A stretch of DNA of 64,000 bases, from assembly GCF_003334305.1 (NCBI RefSeq), contig NZ_QOWS01000006.1. One strand, 5' to 3'. The notes beneath the pieces were generated by a model. That model saw only the letters and a list, made by a program, of their open reading frames with translations, made no database searches and was not told the origin of the DNA. Shown here piece by piece: positions 10,829 to 63,143 of the stretch. Within the stretch, counting starts at the first letter, position 1. The number at the start of each line of letters is the position of its first letter. The translations under genes were made by a program, and so were the position numbers. Source of the DNA: Escherichia coli (GTDB lineage Bacteria; Pseudomonadota; Gammaproteobacteria; Enterobacterales; Enterobacteriaceae).

Positions 10829-13258
10829 GTGTCGTCGTTGCCCGTTGCTGCCGTCTTATCTGAATTACTTACCGCTCTCGATTGTGCGCCGCAGGTATTA
10901 TTAAGTGCGCCGACCGGGGCCGGGAAATCAACCTGGCTGCCGCTGCAACTGCTGGCGCATCCCGGCATTAACGGGAAAATTATCCTGCTGGAGCCGCGTC
11001 GTCTGGCGGCGCGTAACGTCGCGCAACGGCTGGCGGAGCTGCTTAACGAAAAGCCAGGCGATACCGTTGGCTACCGGATGCGTGCGCAAAACTGCGTCGG
11101 GCCGAATACCCGCCTGGAAGTGGTTACCGAAGGCGTGCTGACGCGCATGATCCAGCGTGACCCGGAACTGAGCGGTGTTGGACTGGTGATCCTTGATGAA
11201 TTTCATGAGCGCAGCTTGCAGGCGGATTTGGCGTTGGCGCTGTTACTCGATGTGCAACAAGGTCTGCGTGATGACCTTAAACTGCTGATTATGTCGGCTA
11301 CCCTGGACAACGACCGCTTGCAGCAAATGCTGCCAGAAGCGCCTGTCGTCATCTCAGAAGGGCGCTCGTTTCCGGTTGAACGCCGTTATTTACCGCTGCC
11401 CGCGCATCAGCGTTTTGACGATGCCGTTGCGGTAGCCACCGCTGAAATGCTGCGTCAGGAAAGCGGATCATTACTGTTATTTTTACCTGGCGTCGGAGAA
11501 ATTCAGCGTGTGCAGGAACAACTGGCTTCGCGCATCGGCAGTGATGTATTGCTCTGCCCGCTGTATGGCGCGTTGTCGCTGAACGATCAGCGAAAAGCGA
11601 TCCTCCCGGCACCGCAAGGGATGCGCAAAGTGGTGCTGGCGACCAATATTGCTGAAACCAGTTTAACCATTGAAGGTATTCGTCTGGTGGTGGATTGTGC
11701 CCAGGAGCGTGTGGCGCGTTTTGATCCGCGCACGGGGCTTACGCGACTGATTACTCAACGCGTTAGCCAGGCATCCATGACGCAGCGTGCCGGGCGCGCC
11801 GGGCGTCTGGAGCCGGGTATCTGCCTGCATTTAATCGCCAAAGAACAAGCAGAACGCGCCGCGGCGCAAAGTGAACCGGAGATCTTACAAAGCGATCTTT
11901 CCGGTTTGCTGATGGAATTACTGCAATGGGGATGCAGCGATCCGGCGCAGATGAGCTGGCTGGATCAACCGCCAGTAGTGAATCTACTGGCCGCGAAACG
12001 TCTGTTACAAATGCTGGGGGCACTGGAGGGTGAACGGCTTAGTGCGCAAGGGCAAAAAATGGCAGCGCTGGGTAACGATCCGCGTTTAGCGGCAATGCTG
12101 GTTAGCGCGAAGAACGACGACGAAGCTGCTACCGCGGCAAAAATTGCCGCCATTCTCGAAGAGCCGCCACGGATGGGCAATAGTGACCTGGGCGTGGCGT
12201 TTTCGCGCAATCAACCAGCCTGGCAGCAACGTAGTCAGCAACTGTTAAAACGCTTAAACGTACGTGGCGGTGAGGCAGACAGTTCGCTTATCGCGCCGCT
12301 ACTTGCCGGGGCGTTTGCCGATCGCATTGCTCGTCGCCGTGGGCAAGATGGACGCTATCAACTGGCAAACGGCATGGGAGCGATGCTCGATGCCAACGAC
12401 GCGCTAAGCCGCCACGAATGGTTGATCGCACCGTTATTATTGCAGGGCAGCGCCTCGCCGGATGCGCGGATTTTACTGGCGCTGCCGGTCGATATTGATG
12501 AGTTAGTACAACGCTGCCCGCAGCTGGTACAGCAGTCTGACACTGTGGAGTGGGATGACGCGCAAGGTACGCTGAAAGCCTGGCGTCGGCTACAAATCGG
12601 TCAGTTGACGGTGAAAGTGCAGCCGCTGGCGAAACCGTCAGAAGACGAGTTGCATCAGGCGATGCTTAATGGCATCCGTGATAAAGGTTTAAGCGTGCTC
12701 AACTGGACGGCGGAAGCGGAACAGCTACGCTTGCGTTTGTTATGCGCCGCAAAGTGGTTGCCGGAATATGACTGGCCAGCGGTTGATGATGAAAGTTTAT
12801 TGGCGACGCTGGAAACGTGGCTGCTGCCACATATGACTGGCGTACATTCACTACGCGGCCTGAAATCACTCGACATTTATCAGGCACTACGCGGATTACT
12901 TGATTGGGGAATGCAGCAACGTCTGGATAGTGAATTGCCTGCGCATTACACTGTGCCGACGGGAAGCCGGATCGCCATTCGTTATCATGAAGATAACCCG
13001 CCCGCGCTGGCGGTGAGAATGCAAGAGATGTTTGGCGAGGCCACCAATCCGACGATCGCCCAGGGGCGCGTGCCGCTGGTGCTGGAGTTGCTTTCACCTG
13101 CCCAAAGGCCATTACAAATCACACGAGATTTGAGCGCCTTCTGGAAAGGAGCGTACCGTGAGGTGCAAAAAGAGATGAAAGGGCGTTATCCCAAACATGT
13201 CTGGCCGGACGACCCGGCAAATACTGCACCGACGCGACGGACGAAAAAGTATTCGTAA
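10829..13258 (+). CDS. hrpB: ATP-dependent RNA helicase HrpB (DEAH box)
   Basis: Track ORF 824 aa; probable GTG start at 10829 (VSSLPVAAVLSELL..., 809 aa); Walker A GAGKST and DEFH motif. Confidence 0.85.
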   Translation: MSSLPVAAVLSELLTALDCAPQVLLSAPTGAGKSTWLPLQLLAHPGINGKIILLEPRRLAARNVAQRLAELLNEKPGDTVGYRMRAQNCVGPNTRLEVVTEGVLTRMIQRDPELSGVGLVILDEFHERSLQADLALALLLDVQQGLRDDLKLLIMSATLDNDRLQQMLPEAPVVISEGRSFPVERRYLPLPAHQRFDDAVAVATAEMLRQESGSLLLFLPGVGEIQRVQEQLASRIGSDVLLCPLYGALSLNDQRKAILPAPQGMRKVVLATNIAETSLTIEGIRLVVDCAQERVARFDPRTGLTRLITQRVSQASMTQRAGRAGRLEPGICLHLIAKEQAERAAAQSEPEILQSDLSGLLMELLQWGCSDPAQMSWLDQPPVVNLLAAKRLLQMLGALEGERLSAQGQKMAALGNDPRLAAMLVSAKNDDEAATAAKIAAILEEPPRMGNSDLGVAFSRNQPAWQQRSQQLLKRLNVRGGEADSSLIAPLLAGAFADRIARRRGQDGRYQLANGMGAMLDANDALSRHEWLIAPLLLQGSASPDARILLALPVDIDELVQRCPQLVQQSDTVEWDDAQGTLKAWRRLQIGQLTVKVQPLAKPSEDELHQAMLNGIRDKGLSVLNWTAEAEQLRLRLLCAAKWLPEYDWPAVDDESLLATLETWLLPHMTGVHSLRGLKSLDIYQALRGLLDWGMQQRLDSELPAHYTVPTGSRIAIRYHEDNPPALAVRMQEMFGEATNPTIAQGRVPLVLELLSPAQRPLQITRDLSAFWKGAYREVQKEMKGRYPKHVWPDDPANTAPTRRTKKYS

Positions 13259-13267
13259 GGTTGGTTT

Positions 13268-13358
13268 TCTCCCTCTCCCTGTGGGAGAGGGCCGGGGTGA
13301 GGGCATCAGCGCGCACGTTCACCCTCACCCTAACCCTCTCCCTCAAGGGAGAGGGGAC
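13268..13358. repeat. composite GC-rich imperfect palindromic element (hairpin CCCTCTCCC/GGGAGAGGG plus GGGGTGAGGG, mirrored); REP/BoxC-like intergenic repeat, family uncertain
   Basis: Two hairpin units and inverted GGGTGAGGG/CCCTCACCC blocks read directly in the hrpB-mrcB spacer. Confidence 0.6.
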
Positions 13359-13453
13359 CGATCGAGCACAAATTTTGAGAGATATCTTCTTCTGTCTTGT
13401 AACAGAAGAACAGAAAATCGGGCTTTTGCGCCTGAATATTGCGGAGAAAAAGC

Positions 13454-15988
13454 ATGGCCGGGAATGACCGCGAGCCAATTGGACGCAAAGGGAAACCGAC
13501 GCGTCCGGTCAAACAAAAGGTAAGCCGTCGTCGTTACGAAGATGACGATGATTACGACGATTATGATGACTATGAGGATGAAGAACCGATGCCGCGCAAA
13601 GGTAAGGGCAAAGGCAAAGGGCGTAAGCCTCGTGGCAAACGCGGCTGGCTATGGCTGCTGTTAAAACTGGCTATCGTTTTTGCCGTGCTGATCGCCATTT
13701 ACGGCGTTTATCTCGATCAAAAAATTCGTAGCCGTATTGATGGCAAGGTCTGGCAACTGCCTGCGGCAGTTTATGGCCGAATGGTCAATCTTGAGCCAGA
13801 TATGACCATCAGCAAGAACGAGATGGTGAAGCTGCTGGAGGCGACTCAGTATCGTCAGGTGTCGAAAATGACCCGTCCTGGCGAATTTACCGTGCAGGCC
13901 AACAGCATTGAGATGATCCGCCGTCCGTTTGATTTCCCGGACAGTAAAGAAGGGCAGGTGCGTGCGCGTCTGACCTTTGATGGTGATCATCTGGCGACGA
14001 TCGTCAATATGGAGAACAACCGTCAGTTCGGTTTCTTCCGTCTTGATCCGCGCCTGATCACCATGATCTCTTCGCCAAACGGTGAGCAGCGTCTGTTTGT
14101 GCCGCGCAGTGGTTTCCCTGATTTGCTGGTGGATACTTTGCTGGCGACAGAAGACCGCCATTTCTACGAGCATGATGGGATCAGCCTCTACTCAATTGGG
14201 CGTGCGGTGCTGGCAAACCTGACCGCAGGTCGCACGGTGCAGGGTGCGAGTACGCTGACGCAACAGCTGGTGAAAAACCTGTTCCTCTCCAGCGAGCGCT
14301 CTTACTGGCGTAAAGCGAACGAAGCCTACATGGCGCTGATCATGGACGCGCGTTACAGCAAAGACCGTATTCTTGAGCTGTATATGAACGAGGTGTATCT
14401 CGGTCAGAGCGGCGACAACGAAATCCGCGGCTTCCCGCTGGCAAGCTTGTATTACTTTGGTCGCCCGGTAGAAGAGCTAAGCCTCGACCAGCAGGCGCTG
14501 TTAGTCGGTATGGTGAAAGGGGCGTCCATCTACAACCCGTGGCGTAACCCGAAACTGGCGCTGGAGCGACGTAATCTGGTGCTGCGTCTGCTGCAACAGC
14601 AACAGATTATTGATCAAGAACTCTATGACATGTTGAGTGCACGTCCGCTGGGGGTTCAGCCGCGCGGTGGGGTAATCTCTCCACAGCCAGCCTTTATGCA
14701 ACTGGTGCGTCAGGAGCTGCAGGCAAAACTGGGCGATAAGGTAAAAGATCTCTCCGGCGTGAAGATCTTCACTACCTTTGACTCGGTGGCCCAGGACGCG
14801 GCAGAAAAAGCCGCCGTGGAAGGCATTCCGGCACTGAAGAAACAGCGTAAGTTGAGCGATCTTGAAACTGCGATTGTGGTCGTCGACCGCTTTAGTGGTG
14901 AAGTTCGTGCGATGGTCGGAGGTTCTGAGCCGCAGTTTGCGGGCTACAACCGTGCGATGCAGGCGCGTCGTTCGATTGGTTCCCTTGCAAAACCAGCGAC
15001 TTATCTGACGGCTTTAAGCCAGCCGAAAATCTATCGCCTGAACACGTGGATTGCCGATGCGCCAATCGCGCTGCGTCAGCCGAATGGCCAGGTCTGGTCA
15101 CCGCAGAACGATGACCGTCGTTATAGCGAAAGCGGCAGAGTGATGCTGGTGGATGCGTTGACCCGTTCGATGAACGTGCCGACGGTAAATCTGGGGATGG
15201 CGCTGGGGCTGCCTGCAGTTACGGATACCTGGATCAAACTGGGCGTACCGAAAGATCAGCTGCATCCGGTTCCGGCGATGCTGCTGGGGGCGTTGAACTT
15301 AACGCCAATCGAAGTGGCGCAGGCGTTCCAGACCATCGCCAGCGGTGGTAACCGTGCACCGCTTTCTGCACTGCGTTCGGTAATCGCGGAAGATGGCAAG
15401 GTGCTGTATCAGAGCTTCCCGCAGGCAGAACGCGCTGTTCCGGCGCAGGCGGCGTATCTGACACTATGGACCATGCAGCAGGTGGTACAACGTGGTACGG
15501 GTCGTCAGCTTGGGGCGAAATACCCGAACCTGCATCTGGCAGGGAAAACAGGGACTACCAACAATAACGTAGATACCTGGTTTGCAGGCATTGACGGCAG
15601 CACGGTGACCATCACCTGGGTAGGCCGTGATAACAACCAGCCGACCAAACTGTATGGAGCCAGCGGGGCAATGTCGATTTATCAGCGTTATCTGGCTAAC
15701 CAGACGCCAACGCCGCTGAATCTTGTTCCGCCAGAAGATATTGCAGATATGGGCGTGGACTACGACGGCAACTTTGTTTGCAGCGGTGGCATGCGTGTCT
15801 TGCCGGTCTGGACCAGCGATCCGCAATCGCTGTGCCAGCAGAGCGAGATGCAGCAGCAGCCGTCAGGCAATCCGTTTGATCAGTCTTCTCAGCCGCAGCA
15901 ACAGCCGCAACAGCAACCTGCTCAGCAAGAGCAGAAAGACAGCGACGGTGTAGCCGGTTGGATCAAGGATATGTTTGGTAGTAATTAA
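13454..15988 (+). CDS. mrcB: penicillin-binding protein 1B (bifunctional glycosyltransferase/transpeptidase)
   Basis: Track ORF 849 aa; PBP1b starts [19 protein letters not shown] (844 aa) with Shine-Dalgarno GGAGA upstream; acidic/basic N-terminal tail and Q/P-rich C-terminus. Confidence 0.9.
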
Positions 15989-16004
15989 CATCTAAGCGTG
16001 AAAT

Positions 16005-16029
16005 ACCGGATGGCGAGTTGCCATCCGGT
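16005..16029 (+). terminator. stem-loop downstream of mrcB (ACCGGATGGC-GAGTT-GCCATCCGGT), no clear U-tract
   Basis: Perfect 10-bp inverted repeat read in the sequence. Confidence 0.35.
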
Positions 16030-16150
16030 AAAATAACATCCCATCTAAGATATTAACCCTTTCTTTTCATCTGGTTGTTTATTAACCCTTCAGGAACGCT
16101 CAGATTGCGTACCGCTTGCGAACCCGCCAGCGTTTCGAATATTATCTTAT

Positions 16151-16187
16151 CTTTATAATAATCATTCTCGTTTACGTTATCATTCAC
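16151..16187 (+). promoter_or_regulatory. fhuA promoter with Fur box overlapping the -10 (TATAAT at 16154-16159)
   Basis: ATAATAATCATTCTC and TTATCATTC resemble the Fur consensus GATAATGATAATCATTATC, about 25-55 bp upstream of the fhuA start. Confidence 0.6.
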
Positions 16188-16207
16188 TTTACATCAGAGA
16201 TATACCA

Positions 16208-18451
16208 ATGGCGCGTTCCAAAACTGCTCAGCCAAAACACTCACTGCGTAAAATCGCAGTTGTAGTAGCCACAGCGGTTAGCGGCATGTCTGTTTATGCA
16301 CAGGCAGCGGTTGAACCGAAAGAAGACACTATCACCGTTACCGCTGCACCTGCGCCGCAAGAAAGCGCATGGGGGCCTGCTGCAACTATTGCGGCGCGAC
16401 AGTCTGCTACCGGCACTAAAACCGATACGCCGATTCAAAAAGTGCCACAGTCTATTTCTGTTGTGACCGCCGAAGAGATGGCGCTGCATCAGCCGAAGTC
16501 GGTAAAAGAAGCGCTTAGCTACACGCCGGGTGTCTCTGTTGGTACGCGTGGCGCATCCAACACCTATGACCACCTGATCATTCGCGGCTTTGCGGCAGAA
16601 GGCCAAAGCCAGAATAACTATCTGAATGGACTGAAGTTGCAGGGCAACTTCTATAACGATGCGGTCATTGACCCGTATATGCTGGAACGCGCTGAAATTA
16701 TGCGTGGCCCGGTTTCCGTGCTTTACGGTAAAAGCAGTCCTGGCGGCCTGTTGAATATGGTCAGCAAGCGTCCGACCACCGAACCGCTGAAAGAAGTTCA
16801 GTTTAAAGCCGGTACTGACAGCCTGTTCCAGACTGGTTTTGACTTTAGCGATTCGTTGGATGATGACGGTGTTTACTCTTATCGCCTGACCGGTCTTGCG
16901 CGTTCTGCCAATGCCCAGCAGAAAGGGTCAGAAGAGCAGCGTTATGCTATTGCACCGGCGTTCACCTGGCGTCCGGATGATAAAACCAATTTTACCTTCC
17001 TTTCTTACTTCCAGAACGAGCCGGAAACCGGTTATTACGGCTGGTTGCCGAAAGAGGGAACCGTTGAGCCGCTGCCGAACGGTAAGCGTCTGCCGACAGA
17101 CTTTAATGAAGGGGCGAAGAACAACACCTATTCTCGTAATGAGAAGATGGTCGGCTACAGCTTCGATCACGAATTTAACGACACCTTTACTGTGCGTCAG
17201 AACCTGCGCTTTGCTGAAAACAAAACCTCGCAAAACAGCGTTTATGGTTACGGCGTCTGCTCCGATCCGGCGAATGCTTACAGCAAACAGTGTGCGGCAT
17301 TAGCGCCAGCGGATAAAGGCCATTATCTGGCACGTAAATACGTCGTTGATGATGAGAAGCTGCAAAACTTCTCCGTTGATACCCAGTTGCAGAGCAAGTT
17401 TGCCACTGGCGATATCGACCACACCCTGCTGACCGGTGTCGACTTTATGCGTATGCGTAATGACATCAACGCCTGGTTTGGTTACGACGACTCTGTGCCA
17501 CTGCTCAATCTGTACAATCCGGTGAATACCGATTTCGACTTCAATGCCAAAGATCCGGCAAACTCCGGCCCTTACCGCATTCTGAATAAGCAGAAACAAA
17601 CGGGCGTTTATGTTCAGGATCAGGCGCAGTGGGATAAAGTGCTGGTCACCCTGGGCGGTCGTTATGACTGGGCAGATCAAGAATCTCTTAACCGCGTTGC
17701 TGGGACGACCGATAAACGTGATGACAAACAGTTTACCTGGCGTGGTGGTGTTAACTACCTGTTTGATAATGGTGTAACACCTTACTTCAGCTATAGCGAA
17801 TCGTTTGAACCTTCTTCGCAAGTTGGGAAGGATGGTAATATTTTCGCACCGTCTAAAGGTAAGCAGTATGAAGTCGGCGTGAAATATGTACCGGAAGATC
17901 GTCCGATTGTAGTTACTGGTGCCGTGTATAATCTCACTAAAACCAACAACCTGATGGCGGACCCTGAGGGTTCCTTCTTCTCGGTTGAAGGTGGCGAGAT
18001 CCGCGCACGTGGCGTAGAAATCGAAGCGAAAGCGGCGCTGTCGGCGAGTGTTAACGTAGTCGGTTCTTATACTTACACCGATGCGGAATACACCACCGAT
18101 ACTACCTATAAAGGCAATACGCCTGCACAGGTGCCAAAACACATGGCTTCGCTGTGGGCTGACTATACCTTCTTTGACGGTCCGCTTTCAGGTCTGACGC
18201 TGGGCACCGGTGGTCGTTATACTGGCTCCAGCTATGGTGATCCGGCTAACTCCTTTAAAGTGGGAAGTTATACGGTCGTGGATGCGTTAGTGCGTTATGA
18301 TCTGGCGCGAGTCGGCATGGCGGGCTCCAACGTGGCGCTGCATGTTAACAACCTGTTCGATCGTGAATACGTCGCCAGCTGCTTTAACACTTATGGCTGC
18401 TTCTGGGGCGCAGAACGTCAGGTCGTTGCAACCGCAACCTTCCGTTTCTAA
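16208..18451 (+). CDS. fhuA: TonB-dependent ferrichrome outer-membrane transporter (receptor for phages T1, T5, phi80 and colicin M)
   Basis: 747-aa ORF with signal peptide, TonB box DTITVTA and C-terminal F (ATFRF). Confidence 0.95.
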   Translation: MARSKTAQPKHSLRKIAVVVATAVSGMSVYAQAAVEPKEDTITVTAAPAPQESAWGPAATIAARQSATGTKTDTPIQKVPQSISVVTAEEMALHQPKSVKEALSYTPGVSVGTRGASNTYDHLIIRGFAAEGQSQNNYLNGLKLQGNFYNDAVIDPYMLERAEIMRGPVSVLYGKSSPGGLLNMVSKRPTTEPLKEVQFKAGTDSLFQTGFDFSDSLDDDGVYSYRLTGLARSANAQQKGSEEQRYAIAPAFTWRPDDKTNFTFLSYFQNEPETGYYGWLPKEGTVEPLPNGKRLPTDFNEGAKNNTYSRNEKMVGYSFDHEFNDTFTVRQNLRFAENKTSQNSVYGYGVCSDPANAYSKQCAALAPADKGHYLARKYVVDDEKLQNFSVDTQLQSKFATGDIDHTLLTGVDFMRMRNDINAWFGYDDSVPLLNLYNPVNTDFDFNAKDPANSGPYRILNKQKQTGVYVQDQAQWDKVLVTLGGRYDWADQESLNRVAGTTDKRDDKQFTWRGGVNYLFDNGVTPYFSYSESFEPSSQVGKDGNIFAPSKGKQYEVGVKYVPEDRPIVVTGAVYNLTKTNNLMADPEGSFFSVEGGEIRARGVEIEAKAALSASVNVVGSYTYTDAEYTTDTTYKGNTPAQVPKHMASLWADYTFFDGPLSGLTLGTGGRYTGSSYGDPANSFKVGSYTVVDALVRYDLARVGMAGSNVALHVNNLFDREYVASCFNTYGCFWGAERQVVATATFRF

Positions 18452-18501: not shown

Positions 18502-19299
18502 ATGCAGGAATACACGAATCATTCCGATACCACTTTTGCACTGCGTAATATCTCCTTTCGTGTGCCCGGGCGCACGCTTTTGCATCCGCTGTCGTTAACC
18601 TTTCCTGCCGGGAAAGTGACCGGTCTGATCGGTCACAACGGTTCTGGTAAATCCACTCTGCTCAAAATGCTTGGCCGTCATCAGCCTCCGACGGAAGGGG
18701 AGATTCTTCTTGATACCCAGCCGCTGGAAAGCTGGAGCAGCAAAGCGTTCGCCCGCAAAGTGGCTTATTTGCCGCAGCAGCTTCCTCCGGCAGAAGGGTT
18801 GACCGTGCGTGAACTGGTGGCGATTGGTCGTTACCCGTGGCATGGCGCGCTGGGGCGCTTTGGGGCGGCAGATCGCGAAAAAGTCGAGGAAGCTATCTCG
18901 CTGGTTGGCTTAAAACCGCTGGCGCATCGGCTGGTCGATAGTCTCTCTGGCGGCGAACGTCAACGGGCGTGGATCGCCATGCTGGTGGCGCAGGATAGCC
19001 GTTGTCTGTTGCTCGACGAACCGACTTCGGCGCTGGATATCGCCCACCAGGTTGATGTGCTGGCGCTGGTGCACCGTTTAAGTCAGGAACGTGGCCTGAC
19101 GGTCATTGCCGTGCTGCACGATATCAATATGGCGGCACGCTACTGTGATTATCTGGTCGCCCTGCGCGGTGGTGAAATGATTGCTCAGGGAACGCCTGCG
19201 GAAATTATGCGCGGCGAAACCCTCGAAATGATTTATGGCATCCCGATGGGTATTTTGCCGCATCCGGCGGGTGCTGCACCTGTGAGTTTTGTTTATTGA
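18502..19299 (+). CDS. fhuC: ferric hydroxamate ABC transporter ATP-binding protein
   Basis: Starts MQEYTNHSDTTFALRN; Walker A GHNGSGKST, ABC signature LSGGERQR; 265 aa. Confidence 0.9.
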   Translation: MQEYTNHSDTTFALRNISFRVPGRTLLHPLSLTFPAGKVTGLIGHNGSGKSTLLKMLGRHQPPTEGEILLDTQPLESWSSKAFARKVAYLPQQLPPAEGLTVRELVAIGRYPWHGALGRFGAADREKVEEAISLVGLKPLAHRLVDSLSGGERQRAWIAMLVAQDSRCLLLDEPTSALDIAHQVDVLALVHRLSQERGLTVIAVLHDINMAARYCDYLVALRGGEMIAQGTPAEIMRGETLEMIYGIPMGILPHPAGAAPVSFVY

Positions 19300-20189: not shown

Positions 20190-22168
20190 GTAAACGAATT
20201 GCGCTTTTTCCGGCGTTATTGCTGGCGCTGCTGGTGATTGTCGCTACGGCGCTGACCTGGATGAACTTTTCGCAGGCGCTGCCGCGCAGTCAGTGGGCGC
20301 AGGCCGCCTGGTCGCCGGATATTAACGTCATCGAGCAGATGATTTTTCACTACAGCTTGTTACCACGTCTGGCGATTTCTCTACTGGTGGGCGCGGGCCT
20401 GGGGCTGGTGGGCGTGCTGTTTCAGCAAGTGCTGCGTAACCCGCTGGCGGAACCGACGACGTTGGGCGTTGCTACAGGCGCGCAACTGGGGATTACCGTC
20501 ACCACGCTCTGGGCGATCCCCGGTGCTATGGCGAGCCAGTTTGCCGCGCTGGTGGGCGCTTGTGTCGTTGGCTTAATCGTCTTTGGCGTCGCGTGGGGGA
20601 AACGGCTTTCGCCGGTTACGCTTATTCTCGCGGGGCTGGTGGTGAGCCTTTATTGCGGGGCAATTAATCAGCTACTGGTTATCTTCCATCACGACCAGCT
20701 GCAAAGCATGTTCCTGTGGAGCACCGGAACGCTGACGCAAACCGACTGGGGCGGCGTTGAGCGTTTATGGCCGCAGCTGCTGGGCGGCGTGATGCTGACG
20801 TTACTGCTACTTCGTCCGTTAACCCTGATGGGGCTTGATGATGGCGTGGCGCGCAATCTCGGGCTGGCCTTATCGCTCGCGCGTCTGGCTGCGCTGTCGC
20901 TGGCGATAGTCATCAGTGCGCTGCTGGTGAATGCGGTGGGGATTATCGGCTTTATCGGGTTGTTCGCGCCACTGCTGGCAAAAATGCTGGGGGCGCGGCG
21001 TTTGTTGCCACGGTTGATGCTGGCGTCGCTGATTGGTGCGTTAATTCTGTGGCTTTCTGATCAAATCATCCTCTGGCTGACTCGCGTGTGGATGGAAGTG
21101 TCCACCGGTTCGGTCACTGCGTTGATCGGTGCGCCGCTGCTACTGTGGCTGCTGCCGCGTTTACGGAGCATTAGCGCGCCGGATATGAAGGTCAACGATC
21201 GTGTCGCGACTGAACGCCAACATGTGCTGGCGTTTGTCCTCGCGGGCGGCGTGCTGCTGTTGATGGCTGTGGTAGTGGCGCTGTCGTTTGGTCGTGATGC
21301 GCACGGCTGGACGTGGGCGAGCGGGGCGTTGCTTGAGGATTTGATGCCCTGGCGCTGGCCGCGAATTATGGCGGCGCTGTTTGCGGGCGTCATGCTGGCG
21401 GTGGCGGGCTGTATTATTCAGCGGCTGACCGGAAACCCGATGGCAAGCCCGGAAGTGCTGGGGATTAGCTCTGGCGCAGCGTTTGGCGTGGTGTTGATGC
21501 TGTTTCTGGTGCCGGGTAATGCCTTTGGCTGGCTGTTACCTGCAGGCAGTCTCGGGGCGGCGGTGACGCTGTTGATCATTATGATCGCCGCCGGACGCGG
21601 TGGATTTTCCCCACACCGCATGTTACTGGCGGGGATGGCGTTAAGTACCGCGTTCACCATGCTTTTGATGATGTTGCAGGCAAGTGGTGACCCGCGAATG
21701 GCGCAAGTGCTGACCTGGATTTCCGGTTCGACCTACAACGCGACCGATGCGCAGGTCTGGCGCACCGGAATTGTGATGGTGATTTTGCTGGCGATTACCC
21801 CGCTGTGCCGCCGCTGGCTGACCATTTTACCGCTGGGTGGTGATACCGCCCGAGCCGTAGGAATGGCGCTAACGCCGACGCGAATTGCGCTGCTGCTGTT
21901 AGCGGCTTGCCTGACGGCGACCGCGACGATGACTATTGGACCGTTGAGTTTTGTTGGTTTAATGGCACCGCATATTGCGCGGATGATGGGCTTTCGACGG
22001 ACGATGCCGCACATCGTAATTTCGGCGCTGGTGGGTGGTTTACTGCTGGTGTTCGCTGACTGGTGTGGGCGGATGGTGCTGTTTCCATTCCAGATCCCGG
22101 CGGGGCTGCTGTCAACCTTTATCGGCGCGCCATATTTTATCTATTTGTTGAGAAAGCAGAGCCGTTAA
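20186..22168 (+). CDS. fhuB: ferric hydroxamate ABC transporter permease (fused double permease)
   Basis: 660-aa highly hydrophobic ORF overlapping the fhuD stop. Confidence 0.9.
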   Translation: MSKRIALFPALLLALLVIVATALTWMNFSQALPRSQWAQAAWSPDINVIEQMIFHYSLLPRLAISLLVGAGLGLVGVLFQQVLRNPLAEPTTLGVATGAQLGITVTTLWAIPGAMASQFAALVGACVVGLIVFGVAWGKRLSPVTLILAGLVVSLYCGAINQLLVIFHHDQLQSMFLWSTGTLTQTDWGGVERLWPQLLGGVMLTLLLLRPLTLMGLDDGVARNLGLALSLARLAALSLAIVISALLVNAVGIIGFIGLFAPLLAKMLGARRLLPRLMLASLIGALILWLSDQIILWLTRVWMEVSTGSVTALIGAPLLLWLLPRLRSISAPDMKVNDRVATERQHVLAFVLAGGVLLLMAVVVALSFGRDAHGWTWASGALLEDLMPWRWPRIMAALFAGVMLAVAGCIIQRLTGNPMASPEVLGISSGAAFGVVLMLFLVPGNAFGWLLPAGSLGAAVTLLIIMIAAGRGGFSPHRMLLAGMALSTAFTMLLMMLQASGDPRMAQVLTWISGSTYNATDAQVWRTGIVMVILLAITPLCRRWLTILPLGGDTARAVGMALTPTRIALLLLAACLTATATMTIGPLSFVGLMAPHIARMMGFRRTMPHIVISALVGGLLLVFADWCGRMVLFPFQIPAGLLSTFIGAPYFIYLLRKQSR

Positions 22169-57566: not shown

Positions 57567-59708
57567 ATGAACATCATTGCCATTATGGGACCGCATGGCG
57601 TCTTTTATAAAGATGAGCCCATCAAAGAACTGGAGTCGGCGCTGGTGGCGCAAGGCTTTCAGATTATCTGGCCACAAAACAGCGTTGATTTGCTGAAATT
57701 TATCGAACATAACCCTCGAATTTGCGGCGTGATTTTTGACTGGGATGAGTACAGTCTCGATTTATGCAGCGATATCAATCAACTTAATGAATATCTCCCG
57801 CTTTATGCCTTCATCAACACCCACTCGACGATGGATGTCAGCGTGCAGGATATGCGGATGGCGCTCTGGTTTTTTGAATATGCGCTGGGGCAGGCGGAAG
57901 ATATCGCCATTCGTATGCGTCAGTACACCGACGAATATCTTGATAACATTACACCGCCGTTCACGAAAGCCTTGTTTACCTACGTTAAAGAGCGGAAGTA
58001 CACCTTTTGTACGCCGGGGCATATGGGCGGCACCGCATATCAAAAAAGCCCGGTTGGCTGCCTGTTTTATGATTTTTTCGGCGGGAATACCCTCAAGGCT
58101 GATGTCTCTATTTCGGTCACCGAGCTTGGTTCGTTGCTCGACCACACCGGGCCACACCTGGAAGCGGAAGAGTACATCGCGCGGACTTTTGGCGCGGAAC
58201 AGAGTTATATCGTTACCAACGGAACATCGACGTCGAACAAAATTGTGGGTATGTACGCCGCGCCATCCGGCAGTACGCTGTTGATCGACCGCAATTGTCA
58301 TAAATCGCTGGCGCATCTGTTGATGATGAACGATGTAGTGCCAGTCTGGCTGAAACCGACGCGTAATGCGTTGGGGATTCTTGGTGGGATCCCGCGCCGT
58401 GAATTTACTCGCGACAGCATCGAAGAGAAAGTCGCTGCCACCACGCAGGCACAATGGCCGGTTCATGCGGTGATTACCAACTCCACCTATGATGGCTTGC
58501 TCTACAACACCGACTGGATCAAACAGACGCTGGATGTCCCGTCGATCCACTTCGATTCCGCCTGGGTGCCGTACACCCATTTTCATCCGATCTACCAGGG
58601 GAAAAGTGGTATGAGCGGCGAGCGTGTTGCGGGAAAAGTGATCTTCGAAACGCAATCGACCCACAAAATGCTGGCGGCGTTATCGCAGGCTTCGCTGATC
58701 CACATTAAAGGCGAGTATGACGAAGAGGCGTTTAACGAAGCCTTTATGATGCATACCACCACCTCGCCCAGTTATCCCATTGTTGCTTCGGTTGAGACGG
58801 CGGCGGCGATGCTGCGTGGTAATCCGGGCAAACGGCTGATTAACCGTTCGGTGGAGCGGGCGCTGCATTTTCGCAAAGAGGTCCAGCGGTTGCGGGAAGA
58901 GTCTGACGGTTGGTTTTTCGATATCTGGCAACCGCCGCAGGTGGATGAAGCCGAATGCTGGCCCGTTGCGCCAGGCGAACAGTGGCACGGCTTTAACGAT
59001 GCGGATGCCGATCATATGTTTCTCGATCCGGTTAAAGTCACTATTTTGACACCGGGGATGGACGAACAGGGCAATATGAGTGAGGAGGGGATCCCGGCGG
59101 CGCTGGTGGCAAAATTCCTCGACGAACGTGGGATCGTAGTAGAGAAAACCGGCCCTTATAACCTGCTGTTTCTCTTTAGTATTGGTATCGATAAAACCAA
59201 AGCAATGGGATTATTGCGTGGGTTGACGGAATTTAAACGCTCTTACGATCTCAACCTGCGGATCAAAAATATGCTACCCGATCTCTATGCTGAAGATCCC
59301 GATTTCTACCGCAATATGCGTATTCAGGATCTGGCGCAAGGGATCCATAAGCTGATTCGTAAACACGATCTTCCCGGTTTGATGTTGCGGGCATTCGATA
59401 CTTTGCCGGAAATGATCATGACGCCACATCAGGCATGGCAGAGACAGATTAAAGGTGAAGTAGAAACCATTGCGCTGGAACAACTGGTCGGTAGAGTATC
59501 GGCAAATATGATCCTGCCTTATCCACCGGGCGTACCGCTGTTGATGCCAGGAGAAATGCTGACCAAAGAGAGCCGCACGGTACTCGATTTTCTACTGATG
59601 CTTTGTTCCGTAGGGCAACATTACCCCGGTTTTGAAACGGATATTCACGGCGCGAAACAGGACGAAGACGGCGTTTACCGCGTACGAGTCCTAAAAATGG
59701 CGGGATAA
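57567..59708 (+). CDS. ldcC: constitutive lysine decarboxylase
   Basis: 713-aa ORF MNIIAIMGPHGVFYKDEPIKELE...; PLP-fold decarboxylase. Confidence 0.9.
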   Translation: MNIIAIMGPHGVFYKDEPIKELESALVAQGFQIIWPQNSVDLLKFIEHNPRICGVIFDWDEYSLDLCSDINQLNEYLPLYAFINTHSTMDVSVQDMRMALWFFEYALGQAEDIAIRMRQYTDEYLDNITPPFTKALFTYVKERKYTFCTPGHMGGTAYQKSPVGCLFYDFFGGNTLKADVSISVTELGSLLDHTGPHLEAEEYIARTFGAEQSYIVTNGTSTSNKIVGMYAAPSGSTLLIDRNCHKSLAHLLMMNDVVPVWLKPTRNALGILGGIPRREFTRDSIEEKVAATTQAQWPVHAVITNSTYDGLLYNTDWIKQTLDVPSIHFDSAWVPYTHFHPIYQGKSGMSGERVAGKVIFETQSTHKMLAALSQASLIHIKGEYDEEAFNEAFMMHTTTSPSYPIVASVETAAAMLRGNPGKRLINRSVERALHFRKEVQRLREESDGWFFDIWQPPQVDEAECWPVAPGEQWHGFNDADADHMFLDPVKVTILTPGMDEQGNMSEEGIPAALVAKFLDERGIVVEKTGPYNLLFLFSIGIDKTKAMGLLRGLTEFKRSYDLNLRIKNMLPDLYAEDPDFYRNMRIQDLAQGIHKLIRKHDLPGLMLRAFDTLPEMIMTPHQAWQRQIKGEVETIALEQLVGRVSANMILPYPPGVPLLMPGEMLTKESRTVLDFLLMLCSVGQHYPGFETDIHGAKQDEDGVYRVRVLKMAG

Positions 59709-61523: not shown

Positions 61524-61556
61524 GCCGGATAAGACGCATCAAACGTCGCATCCGGC
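61524..61556. repeat. REP (repetitive extragenic palindrome) unit
   Basis: GCCGGATAAGACG...CGTCGCATCCGGC palindrome between the convergent tilS and rof. Confidence 0.65.
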
Positions 61557-62724: not shown

Positions 62725-63143
62725 TTGTGATTTCCCGACATGTTGCTATTCCCGATGGTGAGCTTGAGATCACCGCCATTCGTGCGCAGGGCGCGGGCGG
62801 GCAGCATGTTAATAAGACCTCAACGGCCATTCATCTGCGTTTTGACATTCGGGCGTCCAGCCTGCCAGAGTATTACAAAGAGCGTCTACTCGCCGCCAGC
62901 CATCATTTGATCAGCAGTGATGGCGTGATTGTCATTAAGGCACAGGAATACCGCAGTCAGGAACTGAACCGCGAAGCCGCGCTAGCCCGGCTGGTGGCAG
63001 TGATTAAAGATTTAACAACAGAACAAAAAGCCCGACGACCCACGCGGCCCACCCGTGCATCGAAAGAGCGCAGGCTGGCATCGAAAGCACAAAAATCAAG
63101 CGTGAAGGCGATGCGCGGCAAAGTACGCAGCGGTCGGGAATAA
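62721..63143 (+). CDS. arfB: alternative ribosome-rescue factor / peptidyl-tRNA hydrolase ArfB
   Basis: 140-aa ORF with GGQ motif ([10 protein letters not shown]) and basic C-terminal tail; overlaps the yaeQ stop. Confidence 0.85.

Follow-up and report, generated by a model that had tools for sequence, protein, structure and literature searches.

The hrpB and mrcB genes, both read from the + strand, are separated by a GC-rich nested palindrome at 13268–13358, and a mapped RNA 3' end lies just beyond it. Positions are those of the window, the whole 64-kb stretch of Escherichia coli DNA that was analyzed, and correspond to the MG1655 coordinate minus 151276. Alignment of 6.5 kb of the window (10224–16724) to MG1655 NC_000913.3 gave 54 substitutions and no indels, and 13138–13656, which includes the hrpB–mrcB intergenic region, is identical in the two genomes. 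The features of the locus are as follows.

13256–13258, + strand: stop codon (TAA) of hrpB; the first block of unit 1 begins 12 nt downstream
13259–13270, + strand: left flank, GGTTGGTTTTCT, in which type-B units keep the consensus ..G.TTTTCY (alignment)
13271–13304, + strand: unit 1, BoxC / TMECO type B, CCCTCTCCC-TGT-GGGAGAGGG-CCG-GGGTGAGGG-C
13271–13279 and 13283–13291: hairpin 1, CCCTCTCCC and GGGAGAGGG, loop TGT
13295–13303 and 13322–13330: inner inverted blocks, GGGTGAGGG and CCCTCACCC
13305–13320: spacer between the units, 16 nt, ATCAGCGCGCACGTTC
13355–13321, − strand: unit 2, BoxC / TMECO type A, CCCTCTCCC-TTGA-GGGAGAGGG-TTA-GGGTGAGGG-T
13334–13342 and 13347–13355: hairpin 2, CCCTCTCCC and GGGAGAGGG, loop TCAA
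13356–13369, + strand: right flank, GACCGATCGAGCAC, with GAC.GA..GAGC.C found beside the type-A units of four of four MG1655 convergent pairs
13360, + strand: Term-seq RNA 3' end, MG1655 164636 (Adams et al. 2021, Supplementary files 1 and 3)
13372–13456, + strand: upstream region and start codon of mrcB, outside the repeat
13454, + strand: start codon (ATG) of mrcB

Architecture of the intergenic palindrome

The palindrome is as a preliminary description of this DNA had drawn it, two hairpins flanking inverted inner blocks. It can be read as an 85-nt near-perfect palindrome made of two inverted copies of one three-block unit, placed tail to tail on opposite strands. Each unit is 34–35 nt long and follows the layout CCCTCTCCC-loop-GGGAGAGGG-NNN-GGGTGAGGG. 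The two-block pattern GGGAGAGGG-N1-4-GGGTGAGGG occurs twice in the window and not at all in 100 shuffles.

Folded as RNA, 13255–13375 forms one long hairpin of −76 kcal/mol, compared with −43.9 ± 3.7 kcal/mol for shuffled sequences (z = −8.7). As DNA, the pair folds at −33.6 kcal/mol (z = −6.5) and either unit alone at about −9 kcal/mol. The left flank, which in the RNA fold is weakly paired to the right flank, is part both of the ~56-bp BoxC repeat and of a composite element of ~110 nt, which spans approximately 13259–13369 and has the right flank as its right end.

Two mechanical open reading frames run over the element, 13119–13478 (−) and 13197–13523 (+). Neither has a counterpart in the MG1655 RefSeq annotation; the preliminary description had called the reading frames here spurious.

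On its other side the element gives way to a conserved stretch. In alignments, the last 82 nt before the mrcB ATG are kept from Escherichia to Citrobacter whether the repeat is present or absent. This stretch holds a small hairpin, TTCTTCTGT-cttgta-ACAGAAGAA (13387–13410, 45–65 nt upstream of the ATG), which is kept in two Citrobacter species as well as in E. coli, E. albertii, and E. marmotae, its loop and inner stem varying slightly. It may be part of the leader or of the promoter of mrcB; the mrcB leader as a whole folds no better than shuffles (z = −0.8).

Identity and copies of the repeat

The BoxC repeat of E. coli is said to go back to Bergler in 1992 and to reviews by Bachellier. Hoyne and Maher reportedly wrote of it in 2000 and 2002 as PIT, the potential intrastrand triplex element. 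In the early MG1655 record, BoxC is a 56-bp (51–59 bp) repeat with 32–33 copies (PMC5172473, PMC2267715). Holder et al. (2015, NAR 43:10126, PMC4666352) defined the TMECO consensus in E. coli as 5'-CCCTCNCCC-N3-6-GGGNGAGGG-N3-GGGNGAGGG-3', a motif that in their words was "earlier described as BoxC" and that later went by the name of PIT element, and they divided it by its second loop into type A (TTA) and type B (CCG). Both hrpB–mrcB units match this core consensus exactly, unit 1 with the CCG loop of type B and unit 2 with the TTA loop of type A. The feature is therefore certainly an inverted BoxC doublet of one type-B and one type-A unit.

This very copy stands in two published catalogues. 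Table 1 of Holder et al. gives TMECO no. 1 as CCCTCTCCCTGTGGGAGAGGGCCGGGGTGAGGGC, type B, at MG1655 164547–164580 (+), and TMECO no. 2 as CCCTCTCCCTTGAGGGAGAGGGTTAGGGTGAGGGT, type A, at 164631–164597 (−) (PMC4666352). These convert to window positions 13271–13304 and 13355–13321, and the sequences are identical to units 1 and 2. Table S2 of the same paper places the two at 13 and 63 nt past hrpB, and 5 of its 18 MG1655 loci are inverted pairs, each joining a type A to a type B (PMC4666352). The second catalogue is that of the G-quadruplex motifs of Kaplan et al. (2016, PMC5100583), where HPG2 no. 5 (midpoint 164569, +) and HPG1 no. 6 (midpoint 164608, −) are the hrpB–mrcB copies; unit 2 is identical to HPG1 no. 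6.

The flanks agree with this identity. The left end ..TTTTCY and the tail CAYCARCGCGCA, which is the 5' part of the spacer counted from the last base of unit 1, recur at the single type-B copy between xynR and argF, and the right end GAC.GA..GAGC.C recurs in the pairs. The 34-nt core of the xynR–argF copy is identical to unit 1 and carries the left flank ..GGTGTTCT and the same tail beyond it, a likeness outside the core that is consistent with the longer 56-bp BoxC. The other MG1655 BoxC copies compared are all intergenic. Four MG1655 convergent pairs (hrpB–mrcB, fepB–entC, ygfF–gcvP, and alx–sstT) can be aligned over their full 110–125 nt, both outer flanks and the spacer included, and it is this whole-length alignment that sets the limits of the composite element here. 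The other three have spacers 11 nt longer than that of hrpB–mrcB.

An Rfam scan of 12800–13900 at a permissive threshold returned no family at its gathering score. Eukaryotic miRNA hairpin models were rejected as generic matches to a GC-rich hairpin, with at most 29 bits against thresholds of at least 58.

The preliminary description had set the element apart from the REP consensus seen elsewhere in the window, and this holds. The REP consensus GCCKGATGCGRCG, with at most one mismatch, has four matches in the window against 0.5 expected, and none in 13250–13380:

19256–19268, − strand: REP match
59422–59434, − strand: REP match
61544–61556, − strand: REP match
63624–63636, + strand: REP match

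Its proposal of a BoxC-like family was right, and it had itself allowed that an exact match to a known family would make the element simply a known repeat, which is what we find. The opposite outcome that it had considered, an element unique to this locus with no folding advantage, is contradicted by the fold and by the many copies in E. coli. Among 5,426 complete E. coli genomes, a blastn search with the 101-nt element matched 4,816, at up to 24 places per genome and a median of 9. Nearly all are chromosomal, only 42 of the 50,201 matching places in E. coli records lying on plasmids.

The repeat also extends far beyond the enteric bacteria. A scan for the TMECO consensus in one genome per species had three copy-rich non-enteric genomes among the matches listed. 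In the Methylomirabilota MAG JACPAT01, the matches listed include convergent doublets of two distinct subtypes with spacers of ~30 nt. Mitsuaria chitosanitabida NZ_BCYP01 has, among the matches listed, more than 100 copies with GCTTGC as loop 1 and TCTTCGGGCTC as tail, and its inverted doublets there are divergent and 47–190 nt apart, while those listed for Candidatus Contendobacter JARSSO01 have TTA and CCG loops as in E. coli. Among the matches listed, all three distant genomes keep the three blocks and have loops and tails that are genome-specific and internally conserved, and inverted doublets of the kinds seen in the MAG and in Mitsuaria are frequent. These cross-phylum copies agree with Holder et al. 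(2015, PMC4666352), who state that the motif occurs in over 260 genomes. That a near-identical 30-nt core is maintained from Enterobacteria to Burkholderiales and Methylomirabilota is a puzzle that concerns the family as a whole.

The BoxC pair, its paired arrangement, its instability, and the exact copy at this locus are thus already in the literature (1992–2016), and the element is a known repeat. To the published record we add the 11-nt-shorter spacer relative to the other MG1655 convergent pairs and the coincidence with a mapped RNA 3' end.

Allelic variation between hrpB and mrcB

A 381-nt intergenic query matched all 5,426 E. coli genomes, with at least 80% coverage in 3,536, and these 3,536 carry the filled region or a derivative of it. 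The junction of a short allele, with an "empty" intergenic region of 93 nt, was found in 1,884 of the 5,426 (~35%). The alleles compared individually are as follows.

O157:H7: full pair with three substitutions
PE164: 12-nt deletion within unit 2
DEC9B: 64-nt deletion between the two GGGAGAGGG repeats, leaving CCCTCTCCC-TGT-GGGAGAGGG
MB22: 63-nt deletion between the two CCCTCTCCC repeats, leaving CCCTCTCCC-TCAA-GGGAGAGGG
UTI89, strain 7/2, and ST131 genomes of the same 279-nt match class (B2-type allele): no element, 93-nt intergenic region

The deletions in DEC9B and MB22 are independent events, each of which spared one hairpin, and they match the "palindrome effect" of Holder et al. (PMC4666352). 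The pair is dispensable at the hrpB–mrcB locus: about one-third of E. coli genomes do without it, so any effect it has is non-essential. With filled, half-deleted, and empty alleles among sequenced E. coli, the locus is a handy natural test case.

Outgroup loci, found through HrpB homologues, give a mixed picture. E. albertii has the short allele. In E. marmotae (approximately 3031–3110 of the compared stretch) we observed a degenerate single BoxC-like unit on the − strand, CCCTCCCCC-TAT-GGGAGAGAA-CCG-GGGCGAAGGG, that shares its left junction, GAGGTTGGT, with the K-12-type allele and complicates a simple insertion history. The empty allele, for its part, weakly resembles the right flank of the element. 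In Citrobacter freundii (approximately 3031–3075 of the compared stretch) a REP, GCCTGATAAGCGAAGCGCCATCAGGC, lies directly past the hrpB stop at the position of the BoxC pair, and C. farmeri has a REP-like sequence directly past the stop over the same interval of its compared stretch. Either the site behind hrpB is permissive, or it tolerates, or profits from, a stable hairpin of any kind.

Comparison of the filled and empty alleles revealed no target-site duplication; approximately 12 nt of the short allele are replaced rather than flanked. Of the marks of a MITE, the element thus has the inverted ends and lacks the duplication.

RNA 3' ends and interpretation of the element

The Term-seq end at 13360 falls 5 nt past the outer stem. 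It is weak (score 987) and was recorded in one of three growth conditions; mrcB begins 94 nt further on, and since the hrpB stop codon is more than 50 nt away the end is classed as "orphan" (PMC7815308). Similar ends are found at other BoxC hairpins in the tables of the same study: 4 nt past the hairpins downstream of lldD (3781065, +) and ppiC (3959467, −), and 11 nt past the one downstream of cstA (632098, +) (PMC7815308). The remaining six of the 10 BoxC loci queried (gcvP, alx, adk, zntA, fimH, and tauD, the last queried in part) have no listed 3' end. From 3,110 mapped ends over 9.3 million strand positions, we estimate the chance of an end at ~0.4% per 12-nt window, and at this rate hits at 4 of 10 loci are not due to chance.

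The hrpB–mrcB structure is no canonical intrinsic terminator. Its stem is followed by the right flank rather than by a U-tract, and a scan for promoter and terminator consensus sequences found neither a terminator-like site nor a promoter in 13100–13600. At lldD, the end scores 1.3 as an intrinsic terminator against a cut-off of 3.0 and lies inside a Rho termination region; near hrpB–mrcB, Adams et al. list no such region (PMC7815308). According to the account of work from Maher's group in Holder et al. (2015, PMC4666352), PIT elements have no terminator or promoter activity and no effect on polymerase in vivo. We found no discussion of BoxC as a 3'-end-associated hairpin in the literature, and no study of BoxC or PIT function after 2016.

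We consider it very probable that the pair is a known repeat without a locus-tied function, that its hairpin marks, and probably protects, an upstream 3' end, and that its DNA is prone to slippage deletions. The pair most likely has no function tied to the hrpB–mrcB locus, and we infer its role in RNA from position only: the hairpin probably protects an upstream + strand transcript, most likely the hrpB mRNA, at its 3' end. Transcription from upstream, most likely from hrpB, would yield a very stable hairpin without a U-tract. This hairpin would block 3'-to-5' exonucleases and so fix the 3' end of the steady-state transcript, in the mode described for REP elements and Rho-dependent transcripts rather than by intrinsic termination, and this 3'-end role may well be incidental. 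The pattern of 3' ends at BoxC hairpins is in line with the model that Dar and Sorek put forward (2018, PMC6061677), and we count the REP at the same post-hrpB site in C. freundii in favor of this explanation. In the single strands exposed at replication, the hairpin, with its additional triplex and G-quadruplex potential, would bring the 9-nt direct repeats together and so favor slippage deletions, which would make the spacer hypervariable between strains.

The identity of the transcript deserves a caveat. The filter behind Supplementary file 3 of Adams et al. implies a transcription start site at most 200 nt upstream of the 3' end (PMC7815308). Such a start would lie within 13160–13340 (+), at the end of hrpB or inside the repeat itself, and the RNA ending at 13360 may for this reason not be the hrpB mRNA; the end could belong to a short RNA that starts no more than 200 nt upstream. 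The position of the structure relative to hrpB may matter in another way as well. Liang, Rudd, and Deutscher are said to have found in 2015 that ribosomes stall when a REP lies no more than 15 nt from the stop codon, an effect that might extend to hrpB, where the structure begins 1–12 nt past the stop codon.

A different role would lie in the DNA itself, if the purine-rich strand formed an intrastrand purine-motif triplex or a G-quadruplex in vivo and acted as a structural switch on replication, recombination, or expression of hrpB or mrcB. A class II intrastrand triplex requires three blocks, and exactly these are present in either unit; type A and type B oligonucleotides do form a triplex as judged by CD and NMR (Holder et al. 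2015, PMC4666352). Either unit is also a canonical G3N3G3N3G3-4N3G3 quadruplex motif, together accounting for two of the four such motifs in the window, and a cation-dependent transition between hairpin and quadruplex has been followed by CD (Kaplan et al. 2016, PMC5100583). The conservation of three blocks with variable loops across distant phyla, among the matches listed, points in the same direction. We nevertheless regard a DNA switch as improbable, since DMS footprinting in vivo showed the triplex guanines to be unprotected, the double-stranded form gave duplex signals only, and the elements have no association with gene class, distance, or orientation (PMC4666352). The same account of the Maher group's results, with neither promoter or terminator activity nor an effect on polymerase in vivo, argues against it, as does the absence of the element from this locus in 35% of E. 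coli genomes. The sole positive functional finding published is a statistical association with local sequence variability (PMC4666352).

The other two quadruplex motifs in the window (four tracts of at least three G, loops of 1–7 nt) lie at 20389–20412 (+) and 63031–63054 (−).

The pair may also be viewed as a mobile, or once-mobile, non-autonomous element whose doublet is the replicative unit, as in a REPIN or a MITE, and is recognized by some enzyme, with the copy here representing an insertion. The four homologous MG1655 convergent doublets, alignable through spacer and flanks, show an inverted doublet as the repeated unit in the manner of REPINs. The presence/absence polymorphism at the locus, with the short allele also in E. 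albertii, is in keeping with an insertion, and the two-subtype Methylomirabilota doublets with their ~30-nt spacers and the more than 100 Mitsuaria copies, among the matches listed, speak for spreading on a wider scale. Against this stand the replacement of short-allele sequence with no target-site duplication, a search for homologues of E. coli RayT that found none (tblastn over 1.07 Mb surrounding BoxC units in three copy-rich genomes, with a best E-value of 3.1), the low plasmid share, and the finding of Holder et al. (2015, PMC4666352) that the repeat is not associated with transposons, phages, or plasmids. Mobility therefore appears unlikely to us. A broader version, in which BoxC doublets of ~110 nt rather than single units spread like REPINs through some enzyme and, where they land in 3' UTRs, fix or protect mRNA 3' ends as REPs do, is similarly doubtful. 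If true, it would explain both the cross-phylum doublet architecture and the recurrent coincidence with Term-seq 3' ends.

The preliminary description had also suggested a structured terminator or a protein-binding site. For the latter we found nothing in support. A terminator separating the hrpB and mrcB units would suit the position of the element, 12 nt past the hrpB stop and upstream of the conserved mrcB leader, and the very stable RNA hairpin with a mapped 3' end 5 nt downstream is what such a terminator might leave behind. Yet the U-tract is lacking, the terminator scan was negative, the comparable lldD end scores well below the cut-off, PIT elements are described, in the same account, as having no terminator activity, and gene order is unchanged in strains without the element, all of which makes such a terminator very unlikely. 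A chance palindrome or unique regulatory site, for which only the position between two genes could be cited, is refuted by the many sites per genome in thousands of genomes and by the shuffles, none of 100 of which reproduced the pattern.

Our preferred explanation thus remains a known repeat that probably protects an upstream 3' end and is prone to deletion. The hrpB–mrcB element matters little as a discovery, and the wider questions it raises, the origin of the copies and a possible routine role at mRNA 3' ends, belong to the family.

Among known systems, REP/BIME elements and REPIN doublets are likewise intergenic GC-rich palindromes, often in inverted pairs, that give U-less RNA hairpins at 3' ends, and exonuclease protection has been proposed for REP. 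The sequences are unrelated; BoxC has a third, G-rich block that is absent from REP, and no associated RAYT transposase is known for it or was found in the 1.07 Mb searched around its copies. The protective 3' stem-loops of Rho-dependent transcripts (Dar and Sorek 2018, PMC6061677) are the same kind of stable stem-loop without a U-tract, with the 3' end a few nucleotides downstream; here the likeness lies in the fold and the position of the 3' end, no Rho region being listed nearby (PMC7815308). With BoxC/PIT/TMECO there is no difference: the three-block core, the A and B loops, the flanks, the intergenic site, the multiple copies, and the pairing of a type A with a type B are all the same.
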